From the sequence record KM606994: DNA of 64,000 nucleotides; one strand, written 5' to 3'. Position 1 is the stretch's first letter. Each line of letters starts with the position of its first letter. A program made the position numbers and the translations under genes. The notes beneath the pieces are model-generated. The model was not told the DNA's origin. It searched no databases and worked only from the letters and a program-made list of their open reading frames with translations. Of this stretch, positions 3,684-19,953 are shown one piece after another. Source of the stretch: Escherichia phage RB3.

Positions 3684-5192
3684 ATGGATATTAAAGTACA
3701 TTTTCACGACTTCAGTCATGTACGCATCGATTGTGAAGAGAGCACGTTCCACGAATTAAGAGATTTCTTTTCGTTTGAGGCCGATGGATATAGATTTAAC
3801 CCTCGCTTCAGATATGGCAACTGGGATGGACGAATCCGTCTGTTAGATTATAATCGTCTTCTTCCATTCGGCTTAGTCGGGCAAATTAAAAAGTTCTGTG
3901 ATAACTTTGGCTATAAAGCTTGGATTGACCCGCAAATTAACGAAAAAGAAGAATTATCAAGAAAAGATTTTGATGAATGGCTTTCTAAATTAGAAATCTA
4001 TTCAGGAAATAAAAGAATTGAACCGCACTGGTATCAAAAAGATGCAGTGTTCGAAGGATTAGTTAATCGTCGTAGAATTCTTAATCTTCCAACATCTGCA
4101 GGTAAATCTTTAATTCAAGCTTTGCTTGCGCGATATTATTTGGAAAATTATGAAGGTAAAATTCTTATCATTGTTCCAACAACTGCTTTAACAACTCAGA
4201 TGGCTGATGACTTCGTTGACTATCGTTTATTCAGTCATGCAATGATAAAGAAAATCGGCGGCGGAGCATCAAAAGATGATAAATATAAAAATGATGCACC
4301 AGTCGTTGTTGGTACATGGCAAACTGTAGTAAAACAACCAAAAGAATGGTTCTCACAATTTGGAATGATGATGAATGATGAATGTCATCTTGCTACAGGA
4401 AAAAGTATTTCATCTATCATATCAGGTTTAAATAACTGCATGTTCAAATTTGGTCTATCGGGTTCATTACGTGATGGCAAAGCCAATATCATGCAGTATG
4501 TTGGAATGTTTGGTGAAATATTTAAACCAGTAACGACTTCTAAATTAATGGAAGATGGACAAGTAACTGAGCTAAAAATTAATAGTATTTTTCTTCGCTA
4601 TCCCGATGAGTTCACTACTAAATTAAAGGGAAAAACTTACCAAGAAGAAATAAAAATTATTACTGGGCTTAGTAAAAGAAATAAATGGATCGCTAAATTA
4701 GCTATTAAGCTTGCACAAAAAGATGAAAACGCTTTTGTCATGTTTAAACATGTATCGCATGGTAAAGCTATTTTCGATTTAATTAAAAATGAATACGATA
4801 AAGTTTATTACGTATCAGGGGAAGTTGATACCGAAACCCGCAACGTAATGAAAACCTTAGCTGAAAATGGTAAAGGAATAATTATAGTAGCTAGTTATGG
4901 TGTATTTTCTACTGGTATTTCAGTTAAAAATCTGCATCACGTTGTTTTAGCGCACGGTGTTAAATCTAAAATTATTGTATTGCAAACAATCGGTCGTGTA
5001 TTACGTAAGCATGGTTCTAAAACAATCGCAACAGTCTGGGACCTCATAGATGATTGTGGTGTTAAGCCAAAATCTGCTAATACTAAAAAGAAATATGTTC
5101 ATTTGAACTATCTTTTAAAACACGGCATTGATCGTATTCAGCGCTACGCAGATGAAAAATTTAATTACGTAATGAAAACAGTTAATTTATAA
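3684..5192 (+). CDS. uvsW: UvsW DNA helicase
   Basis: 502 aa; helicase motif I PTSAGKS and motif II DECH. Confidence 0.9.
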   Translation: MDIKVHFHDFSHVRIDCEESTFHELRDFFSFEADGYRFNPRFRYGNWDGRIRLLDYNRLLPFGLVGQIKKFCDNFGYKAWIDPQINEKEELSRKDFDEWLSKLEIYSGNKRIEPHWYQKDAVFEGLVNRRRILNLPTSAGKSLIQALLARYYLENYEGKILIIVPTTALTTQMADDFVDYRLFSHAMIKKIGGGASKDDKYKNDAPVVVGTWQTVVKQPKEWFSQFGMMMNDECHLATGKSISSIISGLNNCMFKFGLSGSLRDGKANIMQYVGMFGEIFKPVTTSKLMEDGQVTELKINSIFLRYPDEFTTKLKGKTYQEEIKIITGLSKRNKWIAKLAIKLAQKDENAFVMFKHVSHGKAIFDLIKNEYDKVYYVSGEVDTETRNVMKTLAENGKGIIIVASYGVFSTGISVKNLHHVVLAHGVKSKIIVLQTIGRVLRKHGSKTIATVWDLIDDCGVKPKSANTKKKYVHLNYLLKHGIDRIQRYADEKFNYVMKTVNL

Positions 5193-5207
5193 GGGCTTCG
5201 GCCCTTT
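5193..5207 (+). terminator. RNA hairpin after uvsW (weak terminator or stability element)
   Basis: AAGGGC-UUCG-GCCCUU stem-loop, short U tract. Confidence 0.35.
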
Positions 5208-5217
5208 GGAGAAAAAG

Positions 5218-5448
5218 ATGTTACTAGAATTTAAACAATTTCTTTATGAAGCTTCTATTGATGAATTTATGGGTAAAATTGCCTCTTGCCAAACATTAGA
5301 AGGTCTAGAAGAACTTGAAGCTTATTATAAGAAAAGAGTTAAAGAAACTGAATTAAAAGATACTGATGACATCTCTGTGAGAGATGCTTTGGCAGGAAAA
5401 AGAGCTGAATTAGAAGATTCAGACGATGAAGTAGAAGAAAGCTTTTAA
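5218..5448 (+). CDS. uvsW.1: UvsW.1 small acidic protein
   Basis: ORF track start at 5206 is TTG; ATG at 5218 with GGAG 6 nt upstream gives 76 aa. Confidence 0.6.
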   Translation: MLLEFKQFLYEASIDEFMGKIASCQTLEGLEELEAYYKKRVKETELKDTDDISVRDALAGKRAELEDSDDEVEESF

Positions 5449-5503
5449 ATTAAAAAAGGCCCAACCAAAAAGGAAGGGCCAAAACTATAGACTAAAGGTC
5501 ACA

Positions 5504-13718: not shown

Positions 13719-13722
13719 CAAT

Positions 13723-13752
13723 GGGGACCGAAAGGTCCCCATATTTTTATTT
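13723..13752 (+). terminator. intrinsic terminator after gene 54
   Basis: GGGGACC-GAAA-GGTCCCC followed by ATATTTTTATTT. Confidence 0.7.
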
Positions 13753-14037
13753 ACGGAATGAAATGAAAGCAGAAACTGAAGCAACTAAACTGTCTTCAAT
13801 ATAAACTTCAATTTTTACCGGAGCTTCTGACTCAAATTTACCTGTTACTACACTCTGAAAAATACTTTCAGACTGTTCTGGCTTTGAAAAATTTTCAGAA
13901 GGAAAAATTCCAAACTTTTTATCTGTTCCAAAAATTTTAATAAATTCATCGTAAACTGCTTCATTAAAAGCATTATCAGCAGGAATAACGCCTTCAACTA
14001 CAAGTTCTTGACCTAAAAAGCGCAAAGAAGATTTCAT
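13747..14037 (-). CDS. hypothetical early protein (T4 alt.-3 position)
   Basis: ORF track 96 aa; own early promoter and GAGGA SD upstream. Confidence 0.5.
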   Translation of the reverse strand: MKSSLRFLGQELVVEGVIPADNAFNEAVYDEFIKIFGTDKKFGIFPSENFSKPEQSESIFQSVVTGKFESEAPVKIEVYIEDSLVASVSAFISFRK

Positions 14038-14068: not shown

Positions 14069-14098
14069 ACTATAACACAACACGAGGGACTTGTAAAC
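14069..14098 (-). promoter_or_regulatory. T4-type early promoter
   Basis: Minus strand GTTTAC-18 nt-TATAGT, then ACTTACTGACATAACATGAGGA leader. Confidence 0.6.
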
Positions 14099-16155
14099 TA
14101 CATTTTGAACTTTTTAGACATTCCGTTGATGTTAACCAAAGAAGCTAATATTTGAGAAACTTCGTTTTCCTCTTCTTTTGATTCTTCTACAAGGAATTGA
14201 TTAAATCCAGCCATTGGACGAACTTCACCAGTTTCCATTAAATGGTCTCCATCATATACTGATTCTTCTAATTGTTCAGAAGGAGGAACGATTGTACCTT
14301 CGATTAGATACTTGTTATAAGCAGTTTCTTTCATAAAGTACGTACTTACTTTATTAATCTTCAGTAAAATTCCGCGCGGTAGAATAACTTCAGCTTCTGA
14401 TGGAAATCCTGATAAATGACCTGGAACGATAACTTTGATTCGCTCAGCTCCTTTAATTACCATACCCACGCTAGTTTCAGCATCTTCATTAGCATATGTA
14501 GAATGACTACCCATATGCATCAAATCTTCTGCATCAACGGAACCTTCTCCTTCACCAGAAAATACTGCGCCGGAATCATCTAGAGCCATATAGTTTTTAC
14601 CATGCTCACCGAAGATATTTGGTTTAAGCGATGTGGATACGAAGTTCTTGAAATAGAACATTTTGTTTTCAATGTTATGACGCAAAGTTTTAAAGGTAAC
14701 TTCTTGTCCACGATAAAGCGTAGTTCCTGGAGGAAGAACTGAACCTTTAGCGAATGCAGAATCAAGCGTCTCAATATGTTTAATAGCTCGTTCCATATAT
14801 TCTTCACGGGTAGAATCTGGTTTACCCAAAAGGAACGAGTTCATTTCAACATATGAATCTGCACAATAATCTTCAATTACATCAGATTCAGCTTGAGTTA
14901 ATCCTTTTGGAGTTACTTCGGTGCTTGCGTATTCATATGCCTGGGCAGCAGATTCATTAATCAATTTATAAATGCCATTCATGACAAATTGAATAATAGC
15001 TGTCTTTTCATCTGGCGTAGCTTTAGAACCTTTAACTAAATCATTAATAATTTTCTTAATAACATCAAAGCTATTAGAAATATTAATGTCAGCAAGATCG
15101 CTTAAAATTTTATCAGTTTTATAATCAAAGAATTCTTTATTCTTTAAATATTCTTGAGAACCTTGATACGATATATCGCTCTGCAACTTGATAGATGGAT
15201 CACGTAAACGTGCATGGGCTAATGCAATATGATTTCGGAAACTTTCTAGTTCATAATCGTTAGATTTAAAACGAGAAGCACTTCTCATACCACCGATAGC
15301 TCCTTTGCCGAAGTTTGAACCAATCTGAATAACGCCAGAGTTCATTGGTCCTTCTGCTTTATATACCGGAACTTTAGATTCAAACTCTTGATATTTCTTG
15401 GCAGCGAAGCTATCACCCTGAAGTGAAGCATCGACAGTAGAATATTGAGCTTGTGCTGCTAATCGACGACTAATTTTAGTTTTTTGAATAACAGCTTGAT
15501 CCGTGCGCTTATCATTTTCTAAAGCAATAGAAGCAGCAACAGCGACAGCTTTAGGAACAGCATTACCTGTTTTAACATCTACATAAACATCACCGACCTT
15601 TGATTCAACTTTTGTGAATAACTCAGTTGAAATAGGAGGTACACCTGGAATGTCTTCTAAATTGGCATTTTTACGGTAAACCATAATATATGCATACTTT
15701 TTATCATAGTCCCAGATTTCCTTTAAAAGAACATATCGACCTGCTCCTTTAGTACGTACTAAACGGTCAGCAATAACTTGCATTTGACGAGCAGCGCCAT
15801 TTGTTTTACTTTTTAGTACGCGGAATAGGCATGCGTCAATTTTATACTGTTTCATTGTTTGAAGAGCAGTATCAAAAACAGCATTAATGACGCCAATTGG
15901 ATTTCCACCCAAGTTTCTAAGCTTAACCAGCGATAATTTCTCGTTGACACCTATCATTACGATATGCATCATTTTATCGCCTGGCTTAACGTTTTTATTC
16001 GTATCACCACCAGAGGTGTATGTACAAAATCTAAATCCAGGAAGCACGCTTTCTTCGCCGGCTTGAATAGCAAAAATTTGTGGTATTTTATGCTTAGGAT
16101 TTAAGTTAACAACCGGCGCCGAAGCGCCGTCAAATAATTCTGTAATAAGTTCCAT
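14098..16155 (-). CDS. Alt-family ADP-ribosyltransferase paralog (downstream copy)
   Basis: 685 aa; N-terminus MELITELFD and first ~400 aa clearly paralogous to the neighbouring alt; ART-type motifs YRGQ, FVSTS, SEAEV. Confidence 0.75.
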   Translation of the reverse strand: MELITELFDGASAPVVNLNPKHKIPQIFAIQAGEESVLPGFRFCTYTSGGDTNKNVKPGDKMMHIVMIGVNEKLSLVKLRNLGGNPIGVINAVFDTALQTMKQYKIDACLFRVLKSKTNGAARQMQVIADRLVRTKGAGRYVLLKEIWDYDKKYAYIMVYRKNANLEDIPGVPPISTELFTKVESKVGDVYVDVKTGNAVPKAVAVAASIALENDKRTDQAVIQKTKISRRLAAQAQYSTVDASLQGDSFAAKKYQEFESKVPVYKAEGPMNSGVIQIGSNFGKGAIGGMRSASRFKSNDYELESFRNHIALAHARLRDPSIKLQSDISYQGSQEYLKNKEFFDYKTDKILSDLADINISNSFDVIKKIINDLVKGSKATPDEKTAIIQFVMNGIYKLINESAAQAYEYASTEVTPKGLTQAESDVIEDYCADSYVEMNSFLLGKPDSTREEYMERAIKHIETLDSAFAKGSVLPPGTTLYRGQEVTFKTLRHNIENKMFYFKNFVSTSLKPNIFGEHGKNYMALDDSGAVFSGEGEGSVDAEDLMHMGSHSTYANEDAETSVGMVIKGAERIKVIVPGHLSGFPSEAEVILPRGILLKINKVSTYFMKETAYNKYLIEGTIVPPSEQLEESVYDGDHLMETGEVRPMAGFNQFLVEESKEEENEVSQILASLVNINGMSKKFKM

Positions 16156-16158
16156 GAT

Positions 16159-18255
16159 TTATCCTTGAACGAACTTGTAAGGCATGTTTGTAATATCTAT
16201 GCAAGACGCAATAATTCCAAGAGATGATTCTGCTTTCTGTTTAACGTTTGATGAAACAAATGATGCAAAGTCAACTCTGTCTTCTATTTCAATATCACCT
16301 GTCATTGCAACTACTTCACCGGTTTCCATTAAATGGTCTCCGTCATAGATTACCGATTCGGTGAGTTCTTCGGTGGTCATAACTTCAGCTTGAATGAGTT
16401 TTGTATTATTAGATGTTGTTCCGTCATTATTAGAAGCATCAGTTATTTTATTAACTTTGACCATCAATCCACGCGGTAGAATAACTTCAGCTTCTGTTGC
16501 TATTCCGAGACTTCCTGGATATACAACATTAACTTTATGAGCTCCATCAATTGCCCATCCTATTTGAACTTTAACGTATTCAGGATTTTCTTTATACGCT
16601 CTTATTTCGTTTGGATTAATAGTTATTCCTTCTTCATTTTTATCAACTGTTAATTCATTGCGAGCTTCTGGTTCTAAAAGACCAATACCAGCATGTGTAA
16701 TTCCAAAACGTCCAAAAATGATAGGAGTTAAAGAAGTAGATACAAAATTTCTGAAATAGAACACTTTATTTTTAACTAGTGCTTCGTATATAGGAGCAGT
16801 CATACTTTGAGCACGATAAACTGTAATGCCTTCTGGTATACGGTCACCATTTTCAAAAGCTGAATCTAAATTATTTATCGCAGATTCAATTTCTTTTTCA
16901 CTCATTACATCATATCGTTCTGGATTGTAGCGGCCTAAAAGAAGATTATTGATGTCAGTATATCCTGATCCACAATACTCTCTAATACCGCGCTTTTGCG
17001 ATGGAGTATATTTAGAACCATCACGGGCAATAGTAATATCAATCATTGGACCTGCACCAATTCCAGAAAAACTATAAATCATTCGTTTGAGGAATTTAGT
17101 TTTTGCTGAGTTCCAAGAATTTTTAGTTATTTCTTCCCAGACTTCATCTGGCTGCCCTTTACGAGTTTTATTATGTTTATCAAGCCAATTATCTTTATAT
17201 TCTTCAAAGAATTGATTAACAGCTGCTGCGTATTTCTCTAAACATTTTATTGAAGTAGTTGGTTCATTTTTAATCGCATTAAGAATTACATCTTTAATTT
17301 TTTCAGAAACTTCATTAACCTCACTTTTTGAAAAGAATTTATAGTCATAGTGAAGTTCATCTGCGGTTCCTTCGGCAATGATTTTTGCTGCCTTAGTTTT
17401 AGAAGCTAATGAATTAATTCCAAGCTTCATTTCTTCTGCTTCGGGAATTAAAGGAGCAGTAGCAGGTTTATTGAAATTAGCTGCGGTAGATTCATACTTC
17501 TGGAATAATTCACTTTCAAATCTAGAAGACTCTAACGATTGACTTTGTGCAATTGCTCTACGTGAAATTTTAACTTTAACGATTACAGCTTGGTCAGAAC
17601 GTTTATCATTTTCTTGCGCAATAGATGCTGCAATTGCCTCATTTTTAGTTACTTGGGCTCCAGTATCTTTATTGATATAAACATCACCGACCTTCGATTC
17701 AACTTTAGTAAAGAGCTCAGTACTAATTTCCGGAACTCCCGGAATGTCTTCTAGTGATACATTTTTGCGATGTATAAGAATATATGCATACTTTTTATCG
17801 TAATCCCAGAGTTCCTTAAGAAGGACGTATCTGCCACCTGAACGACTGCGGATGAGTCTATCAGCAATAAGTTGAATTTGTCGAGCTTGACCGGCGGTTT
17901 TAGACTTAAGAATACGAAGCATGCAGGCATCAATTTTATACTGACGCATTGTTTGCATTGCAACAGTAAAAACCGAATTGATATAATTAATTGGGCTTGG
18001 ACCAAGACCTTTCAATTTAGCAATTGAACCTTTAGCGGTTAATGTAAAAGGAACAATATGCATCATTTTATCGCCCATTTTTAAATCGCGATTAGTATCA
18101 CCTCCAGATGTATAGGTACATAAACGAAAGCCTGGTTGTTCAATTGCATCATCAACATGAACTGAAAAAATTTGCGGTATTTTCTTCTTTGGATTTAAGT
18201 TTGTAATCGGAAGAGTAGTATCTTCGTCAAATAATTCTGTAATAAGTTCCATCAT
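16159..18255 (-). CDS. alt: Alt ADP-ribosyltransferase, probably capsid-packaged
   Basis: 698 aa (start may be the second Met); motifs YRAQ, FVSTS, ATEAEV; late promoter ~20 nt upstream; next to DNA ligase as in T4. Confidence 0.8.
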   Translation of the reverse strand: MMELITELFDEDTTLPITNLNPKKKIPQIFSVHVDDAIEQPGFRLCTYTSGGDTNRDLKMGDKMMHIVPFTLTAKGSIAKLKGLGPSPINYINSVFTVAMQTMRQYKIDACMLRILKSKTAGQARQIQLIADRLIRSRSGGRYVLLKELWDYDKKYAYILIHRKNVSLEDIPGVPEISTELFTKVESKVGDVYINKDTGAQVTKNEAIAASIAQENDKRSDQAVIVKVKISRRAIAQSQSLESSRFESELFQKYESTAANFNKPATAPLIPEAEEMKLGINSLASKTKAAKIIAEGTADELHYDYKFFSKSEVNEVSEKIKDVILNAIKNEPTTSIKCLEKYAAAVNQFFEEYKDNWLDKHNKTRKGQPDEVWEEITKNSWNSAKTKFLKRMIYSFSGIGAGPMIDITIARDGSKYTPSQKRGIREYCGSGYTDINNLLLGRYNPERYDVMSEKEIESAINNLDSAFENGDRIPEGITVYRAQSMTAPIYEALVKNKVFYFRNFVSTSLTPIIFGRFGITHAGIGLLEPEARNELTVDKNEEGITINPNEIRAYKENPEYVKVQIGWAIDGAHKVNVVYPGSLGIATEAEVILPRGLMVKVNKITDASNNDGTTSNNTKLIQAEVMTTEELTESVIYDGDHLMETGEVVAMTGDIEIEDRVDFASFVSSNVKQKAESSLGIIASCIDITNMPYKFVQG

Positions 18256-18275
18256 AGCCTCTCTAGTGTTTATTC

Positions 18276-18283
18276 TATTTATA
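18276..18283 (-). promoter_or_regulatory. late promoter upstream of alt
   Basis: TATAAATA on minus strand ~20 nt upstream of alt start codon. Confidence 0.6.
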
Positions 18284-18285
18284 AA

Positions 18286-18306
18286 ATTAAAGGCCCGAAG
18301 GCCTTT
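18286..18306 (-). terminator. hairpin/terminator between the 62-aa ORF and alt late promoter
   Basis: AAAGGCC-UUCG-GGCCUUU on minus strand followed by T-rich tract. Confidence 0.5.
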
Positions 18307-18493
18307 AGTAATCTAGTGGTAAGAGAGTACGATATATTTCAAACTTCGGTCCTTTTTCATAGGCATCAAATGTTTCTGTAAATTTGTTATAAGCGTATGC
18401 ATCTACAAATTCGAGAATGACTTGTGATACAGAAGTAGAAACATCTCCACCTTCTTTTTGAGCAATGACAATTGTTTCTAAGTAAGCTTTCAT
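18305..18493 (-). CDS. hypothetical protein
   Basis: ORF track 62 aa between ligase and alt. Confidence 0.45.
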   Translation of the reverse strand: MKAYLETIVIAQKEGGDVSTSVSQVILEFVDAYAYNKFTETFDAYEKGPKFEIYRTLLPLDY

Positions 18494-19953
18494 AGACCAG
18501 TTACCTCATGAAAATCACCAAATACATCCTCGAATGTATTAGCTTTAGTTTTATCTTCACGTAAACGAATCGCAATCGGAAGAAATAATTTAACGTAATC
18601 AGTGCGGCCATCAGATTTTAACCAACCGTTGCATTCGCACTCTAGAATTTTTCCAATATAATAATTTTGGTTTTCCATAATGCGAGTACGGTCAAGTTCA
18701 TGCGATTTTACACCGGCTTTATCTTTTAAGCCTGAACCAGCATTTACTTTAATTTTTCCACACTCTGACTCAAGAATAAATCCACCTGCTTTAGTAGGGT
18801 CTTTACGGTGAGGATAAATTCCTACAATTTTTAAATCAACATCAATTACTTCTTTAAATTTATAGAGATTTTTTGAACGAGCATTTTCCCATAATCCATC
18901 GATATTTTTGAGAATAATACCTTCAAGACCTTGGTCAATATACTTTTTATAAATTACCTTAGCTTCATCTAAGTTATTTACTACTTGGTTTTCAATTAAA
19001 ATTACTTTATCATATCCTGATGTCATTTGTTCTAGTTTAGAAAAACGTACATCATATTTCAAACGAAATGCAGGAAGACCGTATATTTCTACCAACGGTA
19101 CATAATCCCAGACCTGAAACTTCATGCACTGTGCTTCTTTTTCAGAAATGGTTCCCTTTAAAGATTTATTGGCGATGCCATTAGATGCAGTACGTGATTC
19201 AGCTACTTCGGCGAATTCTTTAGCTTTACTAATTTCAGGATAAGCATCAAAAAGAAAATCTAGGCCTTCTGGCTCCTTTTTAACTTGCTCATGGTATACC
19301 AATTCGCCATCAATTAACACACCTTCTGGATGAATCTGGCGGGCTTCAGCGGTCATTTTGATTAACTCTTCCTTAAGAAGATCTAATCCTAGATATTCAT
19401 TACCAGCTCGTGATAAAAGACGAACATCATCTAATTCATCACCTCTAACTTCAGCAAAACACCGAGCTCCATCAGCTTTTAACTGGGCAAAAGCTGGAAA
19501 TTTGATATTCTTATTAATGCCTTTTTCATCATAAGAACTTGCAAGCATTTGAGGTTGTTCAGGAATTAAACCTGGCCAAACTTTGTTTGCAATAGATACC
19601 GAAGCACCGCATTCAAGGTCTCGCATCATCACCCGACGCAAAACTTCAACATCATCTTTTTTACCGTCAGTAATATATCCAGTTAATTCCTCAATTGCCG
19701 CATTTCCAGTCAATTTCCGAGTAGCTAACGTGAATTCAATGAAGTCAAGCATATCGGTAAGAGTCAACATTCCAAAACTCTGGGTAGCAATACCAGGTTT
19801 AGGCCATTTCTTGATATAATACTGTAACCCACGAGAATAAGTCAGACGATATACCCGTTTAAGCAATTCATTATCTTTATTCTTTTCAAGAATTGCTTGC
19901 TTCTGCTTAGTTGAACCAATAGATGCTATTTCGTTCAGAATTTTAAGAATCAT
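18490..19953 (-). CDS. 30: ATP-dependent DNA ligase gp30
   Basis: 487 aa, equal to T4 ligase; adenylation motif KADGAR. Confidence 0.9.
   Translation of the reverse strand: MILKILNEIASIGSTKQKQAILEKNKDNELLKRVYRLTYSRGLQYYIKKWPKPGIATQSFGMLTLTDMLDFIEFTLATRKLTGNAAIEELTGYITDGKKDDVEVLRRVMMRDLECGASVSIANKVWPGLIPEQPQMLASSYDEKGINKNIKFPAFAQLKADGARCFAEVRGDELDDVRLLSRAGNEYLGLDLLKEELIKMTAEARQIHPEGVLIDGELVYHEQVKKEPEGLDFLFDAYPEISKAKEFAEVAESRTASNGIANKSLKGTISEKEAQCMKFQVWDYVPLVEIYGLPAFRLKYDVRFSKLEQMTSGYDKVILIENQVVNNLDEAKVIYKKYIDQGLEGIILKNIDGLWENARSKNLYKFKEVIDVDLKIVGIYPHRKDPTKAGGFILESECGKIKVNAGSGLKDKAGVKSHELDRTRIMENQNYYIGKILECECNGWLKSDGRTDYVKLFLPIAIRLREDKTKANTFEDVFGDFHEVTGL

Follow-up and report, generated by a model that had tools for sequence, protein, structure and literature searches.

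In the 64,000-nucleotide (nt) stretch of Escherichia phage RB3 analysed here (sequence record KM606994; the window, to which all unqualified coordinates refer), the alt locus lies on the minus strand and holds two intact, full-length paralogs of the Alt family of ADP-ribosyltransferases. The first gene, alt (16159-18252), encodes 697 amino acids, or 698 from an upstream ATG at 18255, and is an RB5/T2/T6-type allele. The second, alt.-2 ("Alt2" in BASEL annotations; 14098-16155), encodes a full-length second paralog of 685 amino acids. The TAA stop codon of alt (16159-16161) is separated from the ATG of alt.-2 (16155) by the 3 nt ATC, and both this junction and the list of open reading frames (ORFs) agree with a preliminary description of the DNA as carrying two adjacent minus-strand ORFs of 698 and 685 residues, 3 nt apart. 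Its view of the two as clear paralogs is likewise borne out: aligned by BLASTP, the two products are 41% identical from end to end (E 8e-159), far beyond chance, both proteins begin with MELITELFD, and the first 27 nt of the genes are identical in register, as had been described. Quite probably, this is the usual two-gene alt locus of Tequatrovirus, whose products would both be late, packaged, gp21-trimmed and injected arginine mono-ADP-ribosyltransferases with partly different substrates.

Two intact ADP-ribosyltransferases

Membership of the Alt family, as first proposed, is confirmed for both proteins by profile searches. Against Pfam PF03496 (ADPrib_exo_Tox), whose curated cut-off (gathering score) is 23.4 bits, Alt scores 128.9 bits (E 1.9e-37) and Alt.-2 71.8 bits (E 6e-20). 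Both also match phrog_802 ("Alt-like RNA polymerase ADP-ribosyltransferase") over their full length, Alt with E 5e-273 and Alt.-2 with E 5e-256 across residues 1-685. Other resources add less. Pfam PF26846 (Tevenvirinae_ADPRT) is assigned by the precomputed annotation of a 99%-identical cluster representative of Alt.-2, and of the hybrid proteins described below; the local Pfam copy did not report it for the window proteins. No NCBIfam model matches, and a sequence search of the PDB returned nothing for Alt.-2 and only weak matches to CDTa/iota for Alt, in which GEYE of CDTa lines up with the ExE motif of Alt. The fold of Alt.-2 is predicted to be C3/VIP2-like, the model showing the ADP-ribosyltransferase (ART) fold that is characteristic of the Alt/VIP2 clade.

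The catalytic arginine, S-T-S and E-x-E motifs stand in the right order in both proteins, as YRAQ/STS/EAE in alt and YRGQ/STS/EAE in alt.-2, which is how they had first been read. Loss of catalytic residues from one copy had been raised as an objection to the pair; on alignment these residues are intact in both, and R482, S507, S509, E587 and E589 (Alt.-2 numbering) are invariant across a 19-sequence family alignment. In C3-like and VIP2-like toxins, an E-x-E rather than a Q-x-E motif denotes arginine specificity. A single glutamate-to-alanine mutant, published as E577A, abolishes the activity of T4 Alt (PMC11404850). That number misfits the 682-residue T4 protein, whose ExE glutamates are E574 and E576; E577 would be the second of them only if counted from the upstream ATG, and the literature on T4 Alt uses residue numbers that are offset by one from paper to paper (E577A versus E576, in the 682-residue numbering).

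The relation to other enzymes of this kind is distant. The C3-like and binary-toxin ARTs (Vis, C3bot, VIP2, iota Ia and CDTa) have only 14-24% sequence identity to the Alt proteins, which, unlike them, carry a long insertion between the STS and ExE motifs; the toxins are delivered by secretion or through a pore, Alt by the phage head. Nearer to home, T4 ModA and ModB are also R-S-E clade ADP-ribosyltransferases of the same phages (PMC5512222), but they are small, made after infection and not packaged, and have neither the N-domain nor the propeptides.

Could alt.-2 be a decaying duplicate, a pseudogene in the making? T4 keeps only a frameshifted, truncated stump of the gene, as would be expected on this account. 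In the window, the ORF is intact, and full-length copies occur in hundreds of genomes. Furthermore, the ratio of non-synonymous to synonymous substitution rates (dN/dS), estimated from the window, T2, RB32, NBG2 and UFV11, is 0.03-0.055 for alt.-2 (dS up to 0.26), compared to 0.03-0.07 for alt, which signifies purifying selection on both. Decay is accordingly hardly credible, and for the gene in the window a pseudogene reading is ruled out by the intact ORF and the dN/dS values. Given the low dN/dS, the invariant R-S-ExE residues, the C3/VIP2-like predicted fold and the retained prohead-protease motifs, alt.-2 is probably functional rather than decaying.

Both proteins are built alike. In Alt, an N-propeptide (residues 1-6) is followed by an N-domain (7-238; 17539-18234), a middle region (239-409; 17026-17538), an ART domain (410-632; 16357-17025) with R480, S505-T-S507 and E587-A-E589, which ends at a gp21 site, LTE-632 followed by SV, and a C-propeptide (633-697; 16162-16356). 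In Alt.-2, the N-propeptide MELITE (16138-16155) bears the gp21 cleavage motif ITE-6 and precedes an N-terminal alpha/beta domain (7-238; 15442-16137), which falls in PF26846 and is presumed to be a head-core targeting or delivery module. A helical middle region (239-415; 14911-15441) leads to the ADP-ribosyltransferase domain (416-631; 14263-14910), with R482, S507-T-S509, E587-A-E589 and, in the ADP-ribosylating turn-turn (ARTT) loop, F584; it ends at LEE-631 followed by SV, and the C-terminal propeptide (632-685; 14101-14262) contains a conserved YDGDHLMETGE motif.

Divergence between the paralogs is unevenly spread over these parts. The proteins had been described as alignable over some 400 N-terminal residues, with diverged catalytic halves, and this account needs revision. 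Identity is 67% in the N-domain (residues 1-238) and falls to 14% in the middle region (239-415), the truly diverged part; it recovers to 35% in the ART domain (416-631), where every motif is kept, and to 48% in the C-propeptide. Within the ART domain, the stretch between the STS and ExE motifs cannot be aligned between the two. Another difference lies in the ARTT-loop signature (residues 583-589; 14389-14409 for Alt.-2 and 16486-16506 for Alt, minus strand): the position three residues before ExE is F or Y in the Alt.-2 clade and its relatives (F584 in G-F-P-S-E-A-E) and I, A or Q in the Alt clade. This turn of the loop helps C3 and iota-like toxins to recognise their substrates. The signature difference is a candidate determinant of substrate choice.

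Expression and proposed prohead processing

The late-promoter consensus TATAAATA occupies 18276-18283 and lies 23 nt ahead of the ATG annotated for alt (18252). Directly upstream of it, after the small gene alt.1, stands a terminator-like GC-rich hairpin, TAAAGGCCTTCGGGCCTTTA (18288-18307, minus strand), and a terminator upstream of alt is conserved in five of six T4-like genomes (Nolan et al. 2006, PMC1524935). Between 13700 and 18600, the minus strand holds no other exact copy of TATAAATA, and none precedes alt.-2; a late promoter at the upstream gene only is what had been described. T4 alt is a late gene, its transcript appearing at t7 and its protein at t8 (PMC9697503).

Translation of alt could begin at either of two consecutive start codons, ATGATG (18250-18255). 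The ORF finder takes the first, yielding 698 residues, and database annotation the second, yielding 697. Spacing to the GAGAGG Shine-Dalgarno sequence of alt favours the second, and the resulting protein begins MELITE, consistent with the published "ITE-6" numbering. The gene alt.-2 has a Shine-Dalgarno sequence of its own, AAGGA (16162-16166, minus strand), 6 nt before its ATG and within the last codons of alt. Because this site lies inside the end of alt, translational coupling of the two genes is possible, and a scan of the junction revealed no terminator-like site between them. A single late transcript from the TATAAATA promoter would then cover both genes, with alt.-2 translated from the AAGGA site that overlaps the end of alt.

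The best guide to the fate of the products is T4 Alt (gpAlt, NP_049811), a late, head-packaged, gp21-processed and injected arginine ADP-ribosyltransferase encoded at the same locus, between alt.1 and alt.-3. About 40 copies are present per virion and are injected with the DNA, and the alpha subunit of RNA polymerase is ADP-ribosylated by Alt (T4 literature). According to mass spectrometry, Alt in T4 heads is shortened by 6 residues at the N-terminus (at ITE-6) and by 63 at the C-terminus (at LTE-619) to a protein of 68.2 kDa (Ali et al. 2017, PMC5694885); the recalculated mass of the mature form is 68.25 kDa. The three-part architecture, the MELITE N-propeptide, the C-terminal LxE site followed by SV and the R-S-ExE motifs are common to T4 Alt and the window proteins, the difference being that T4 Alt has been studied biochemically and the window proteins are known from sequence.

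Both processing sites can be followed in the alignment. ITE-6 is kept in both window proteins, and the aligned C-terminal site, (L/I/M)-x-E followed by S or A, reads LTE-632 then SV in Alt and LEE-631 then SV in Alt.-2. The glutamates at the two sites, E6 and E631 in Alt.-2, are invariant across the 19-sequence family alignment, and the YDGDHLMETGE motif follows the C-terminal site. Residues 1-10 and 630-685 of Alt.-2 are predicted to be disordered, with a predicted local distance difference test (pLDDT) score below 50. From these conserved gp21 cleavage motifs, co-packaging of Alt.-2 can be inferred, and by analogy with T4 Alt, its late co-expression, head packaging and injection are likely, broadly as the preliminary description had supposed. 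Like T4 Alt, the two proteins would enter the scaffolding core of the prohead; gp21 would trim both after ITE-6, and after LTE-632 in Alt and LEE-631 in Alt.-2; and the mature proteins, of ~70 and ~69 kDa respectively, would stay in the head and be injected with the DNA.

An account in which Alt.-2 is not injected has also to be weighed. It would act late in the producing cell, or be mainly a structural component of the head core with enzymatic activity secondary or absent. T4 Alt has indeed been called both an enzyme and a core protein (PMC11404850), and no virion proteome resolving Alt.-2, which would place it in heads, was found in the literature. Conservation of both gp21 cleavage positions and of the N-terminal peptide, which resembles a capsid targeting sequence (CTS), speaks for packaging all the same, and invariant catalytic residues under purifying selection are hard to explain for a purely structural protein, so that this account appears improbable.

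The locus across T-even phages

As an arrangement, the pair is neither new nor rare. The 4,186-bp region is shared at 100% identity with RB5, RB6, RB7 and RB9 and at 97% with T2, RB32, Sf22 and many more, which marks the window as part of a Tequatrovirus genome. Frequency counts were drawn from GenBank phage records, and allele types were tallied as ortholog counts: at least 277 records align to at least 80% of the two-gene query, with the same tandem arrangement, and in 400 the middle and catalytic part of Alt.-2 is encoded with an amino-acid identity of at least 95%. Clustering at 90% identity places Alt.-2 in a group of 772 proteins. A scan of IMG/VR for relatives gave 5 loci, too few for statistics. 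The novelty implied in the preliminary description therefore does not hold, as the pair is already annotated: in RB32 (2006) as "alt.-2 ... similar to alt", in RefSeq as "Alt-like RNA polymerase ADP-ribosyltransferase (x2)" and in BASEL as "Alt" and "Alt2", and alt paralogs in T4-like phages were already listed by Nolan et al. 2006 (PMC1524935). The alt.-2 of RB32, the Alt-like genes of T2 and of RefSeq genomes and the Alt2 genes of Bas41 and Bas44 are orthologs with 96-99% amino-acid identity in the same tandem, with no difference of substance. The Alt/Alt2 pair is the majority state in Tequatrovirus, and T4 is the exception.

Whether T4 has an intact second copy had been left unsure. It does not: the reference genome carries alt (682 amino acids) followed by only two small ORFs, alt.-1 and alt.-2 (NP_049810 and NP_049809), which a note in the T4 record calls an old duplication of the first part of alt. 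The stretch holding them (5066-5451 of the T4 comparison stretch L002) is 95% identical at the nucleotide level to the first 347 nt of the window alt.-2. Relative to the window, T4 has a 1-nt deletion near 15996 and lacks 1,699 bp lying exactly between two copies of a 9-nt repeat, CTAAAAAGT, on the minus strand; the upstream copy (15808-15816) is the start of the stretch deleted in T4 and the downstream copy (14109-14117) its deletion junction. The PHROG families of the two T4 fragments fit Alt.-2 (residues 1-56 and 62-117) more closely than Alt. Since a frameshift and a deletion between CTAAAAAGT repeats account for the two ORFs, the sequence comparison identifies them as the remnant of a full-length alt.-2, not a partial duplication.

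T4 is also unusual in its upstream gene, which cannot simply be equated with the alt of the window. The two Alt proteins are 99% identical in the N-domain and 94% in the C-propeptide, but 32% in the middle region and 67% in the ART domain. Correspondingly, nucleotide identity between window alt and T4 alt (L002 5455-7503) is 95-98% over codons 1-240, drops to 42-70%, rises again at about codon 600 and reaches 94% over codons 639-678. The window alt is thus a mosaic allele, whose middle and ART part (16357-17538) is of another type than in T4. That catalytic part has 82-94% nucleotide identity to the middle alt gene (ORF7; L009 3148-5229) of the Dhakavirus PSD9, and the N-domains of the two are ~47% identical. 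A catalytic part so close to that of PSD9, joined to an N-domain so distant, suggests that catalytic cassettes have been exchanged between genera. Of the two alt cassette types, GenBank has 313 records with the RB5/T2/T6-type and 170 with the T4-type. What stands of the initial interpretation is the intact Alt-family pair with its catalytic residues, the single late promoter and the lack of a second copy in T4; what falls is the novelty and the placing of the divergence.

Recombination has also occurred between the two genes of the pair. Alt-type N-termini of differing length are found on several proteins with 89-96% identity to Alt.-2, and a single hybrid gene, with an Alt N-terminus and an Alt.-2 body, occupies the interval between alt.1 and alt.-3 in the isolated phage ECML-134 (L016 1742-3802) and in two contigs (L014 5001-7055 and L015 5001-7061). 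Their crossover windows, at nt ~160-196, 421-480 and ~540-575, define at least three independent breakpoints, each of which coincides with an exact 18-21-nt run of identity between window alt and alt.-2 (nt 177-196, 453-473 and 558-575). Because the breakpoints fall on shared identity runs, the tandem pair evidently recombines by unequal crossover, and viable natural hybrids imply that the N-domains of Alt and Alt.-2 are functionally exchangeable. Gene number varies in other genera as well: Dhakavirus PSD9, a Shigella phage, has three tandem alt genes (L009 1244-7356), and Moonvirus KM16, a Salmonella phage, has two (L010 3140-7392); among themselves and against the window genes, their ART domains share only 35-58% identity. 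Judged from these sequences, the alt locus is a variable array of one to three genes.

Such an organisation is reminiscent of polymorphic-toxin and polyvalent-protein loci, which share with it a lineage-bound N-domain, an exchanged catalytic cassette, tandem arrays of one to three genes and recombinant hybrids. The alt locus is, however, without immunity genes, and the analogy is one of organisation only.

Possible role of the second enzyme

If both proteins are injected, what does the second one add? Different targets for Alt and Alt.-2, as first suggested from their divergence, are plausible. Alt variants are not interchangeable: ectopic T4 Alt, not Bas37 Alt, partially restored plaques on Mokosh type I cells (bioRxiv 10.1101/2025.11.20.689424). 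Together with the 35% identity of the ART domains, the unalignable loop between STS and ExE and the F584 signature, this points to a possible functional difference of Alt.-2. The competing thought is that Alt.-2 is a redundant dosage copy, packaged and active on the same host targets as Alt (RNA polymerase alpha and others), which would simply mean that more enzyme is injected. The two do share architecture, propeptides and catalytic motifs, T4 lost the gene without obvious cost, and phages whose pair has been reduced to one hybrid gene are viable. Yet identities of 35% in the ART domain and 14% in the middle region are unexpected for a dosage copy when each gene is held at dN/dS ~0.05, the ARTT-loop signature differs between the clades, and Alt variants are already known to differ in function. 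Simple dosage is thus an unlikely explanation, albeit one with more to commend it than the account without injection.

The preferred reading, two injected enzymes with partly different substrates, would assign a division of labour to the parts of each protein. The conserved N-domain and the two propeptides would form the delivery part, and the diverged middle region and catalytic domain the effector part; each protein would act as an arginine-specific (R-S-ExE) mono-ADP-ribosyltransferase on host proteins, and the diverged effector part would probably give the two enzymes partly different substrates.

Several points weigh against it. The late promoter is a consensus match, and across the whole window the TATAAATA octamer is found 11 times against 9.4 expected from shuffles, which is not above chance; without enrichment, the call draws on the position of the match and on T4 alt being late. 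Six one-mismatch variants of TATAAATA lie inside alt, upstream of alt.-2, and could serve as weak internal promoters for it. (L/I)xE motifs are frequent, 7-10 per protein, so that the presence of a motif says little by itself and the argument for gp21 sites relies on aligned position and invariance. T4 and the single-hybrid phages thrive without a separate Alt.-2, which on laboratory hosts, at least, is therefore dispensable. That Alt.-2 is present in virions, cleaved, injected and active is in each case extrapolated from T4 Alt, with which it has an overall identity of only 41%. Finally, the literature yielded no experiment on Alt.-2, functional studies included, and no paper joining "Alt2", ADP-ribosyltransferase and phage was located; an earlier description of a second gene in older papers on alt of T2, T4 and T6 is possible.

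A wider proposition can be put forward more tentatively, as a conjecture that is perhaps somewhat less probable than its negation. Here, Alt.-2 would be a second injected effector with its own substrates, perhaps directed against one host defence, in the manner of T4 Alt against MazF and Mokosh type I. The locus would then be an exchangeable effector array, in which a lineage-specific delivery module is combined with catalytic cassettes that move between T-even genera, and copy number would vary from one to three through unequal crossover and deletion.

As a discovery, the pair carries little weight, since hundreds of T-even genomes contain it in annotated form and the family and likely chemistry of the second copy are obvious. 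Of more consequence is that T4 is atypical, both in having lost Alt.-2 and in carrying a catalytic allele different from that of most relatives, including T2 and T6. Since the model phage is without the gene, Alt.-2 is biochemically uncharacterised, and T4-based work on host takeover, ADP-ribosyl-proteomes and anti-defence misses one enzyme that most Tequatroviruses likely inject. Alt.-2 is therefore an accessible candidate for studies in these three areas.

The surroundings of the pair are those expected of the T-even Alt family, with DNA ligase and alt.1 on one side and alt.-3 and baseplate gene 54 on the other. Downstream, the minus-strand block ends with alt.-3 (13747-14037, minus strand; 96 amino acids, DUF5498). 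A match to a sigma-70-like promoter consensus (TTTACA-17-TATAGT with TG; 14069-14097, minus strand) adjoins the alt.-2 stop codon and precedes alt.-3, which may therefore be expressed not only by late read-through but also early. T4 mutants with a C-terminal extension of Alt.-3 escape the CmdTAC defence system (PMC11618068). A bidirectional terminator hairpin (13721-13742), between alt.-3 and gene 54, closes the alt/alt.-2/alt.-3 unit, and beyond alt.-3 the baseplate genes 54 and 48 are encoded on the plus strand. Upstream, alt.1 (18305-18493, minus strand) encodes 62 amino acids with Pfam Phage_blade (PF24647) and is preceded by gene 30, DNA ligase (18490-19953, minus strand), whose stop codon alt.1 overlaps by 4 nt.

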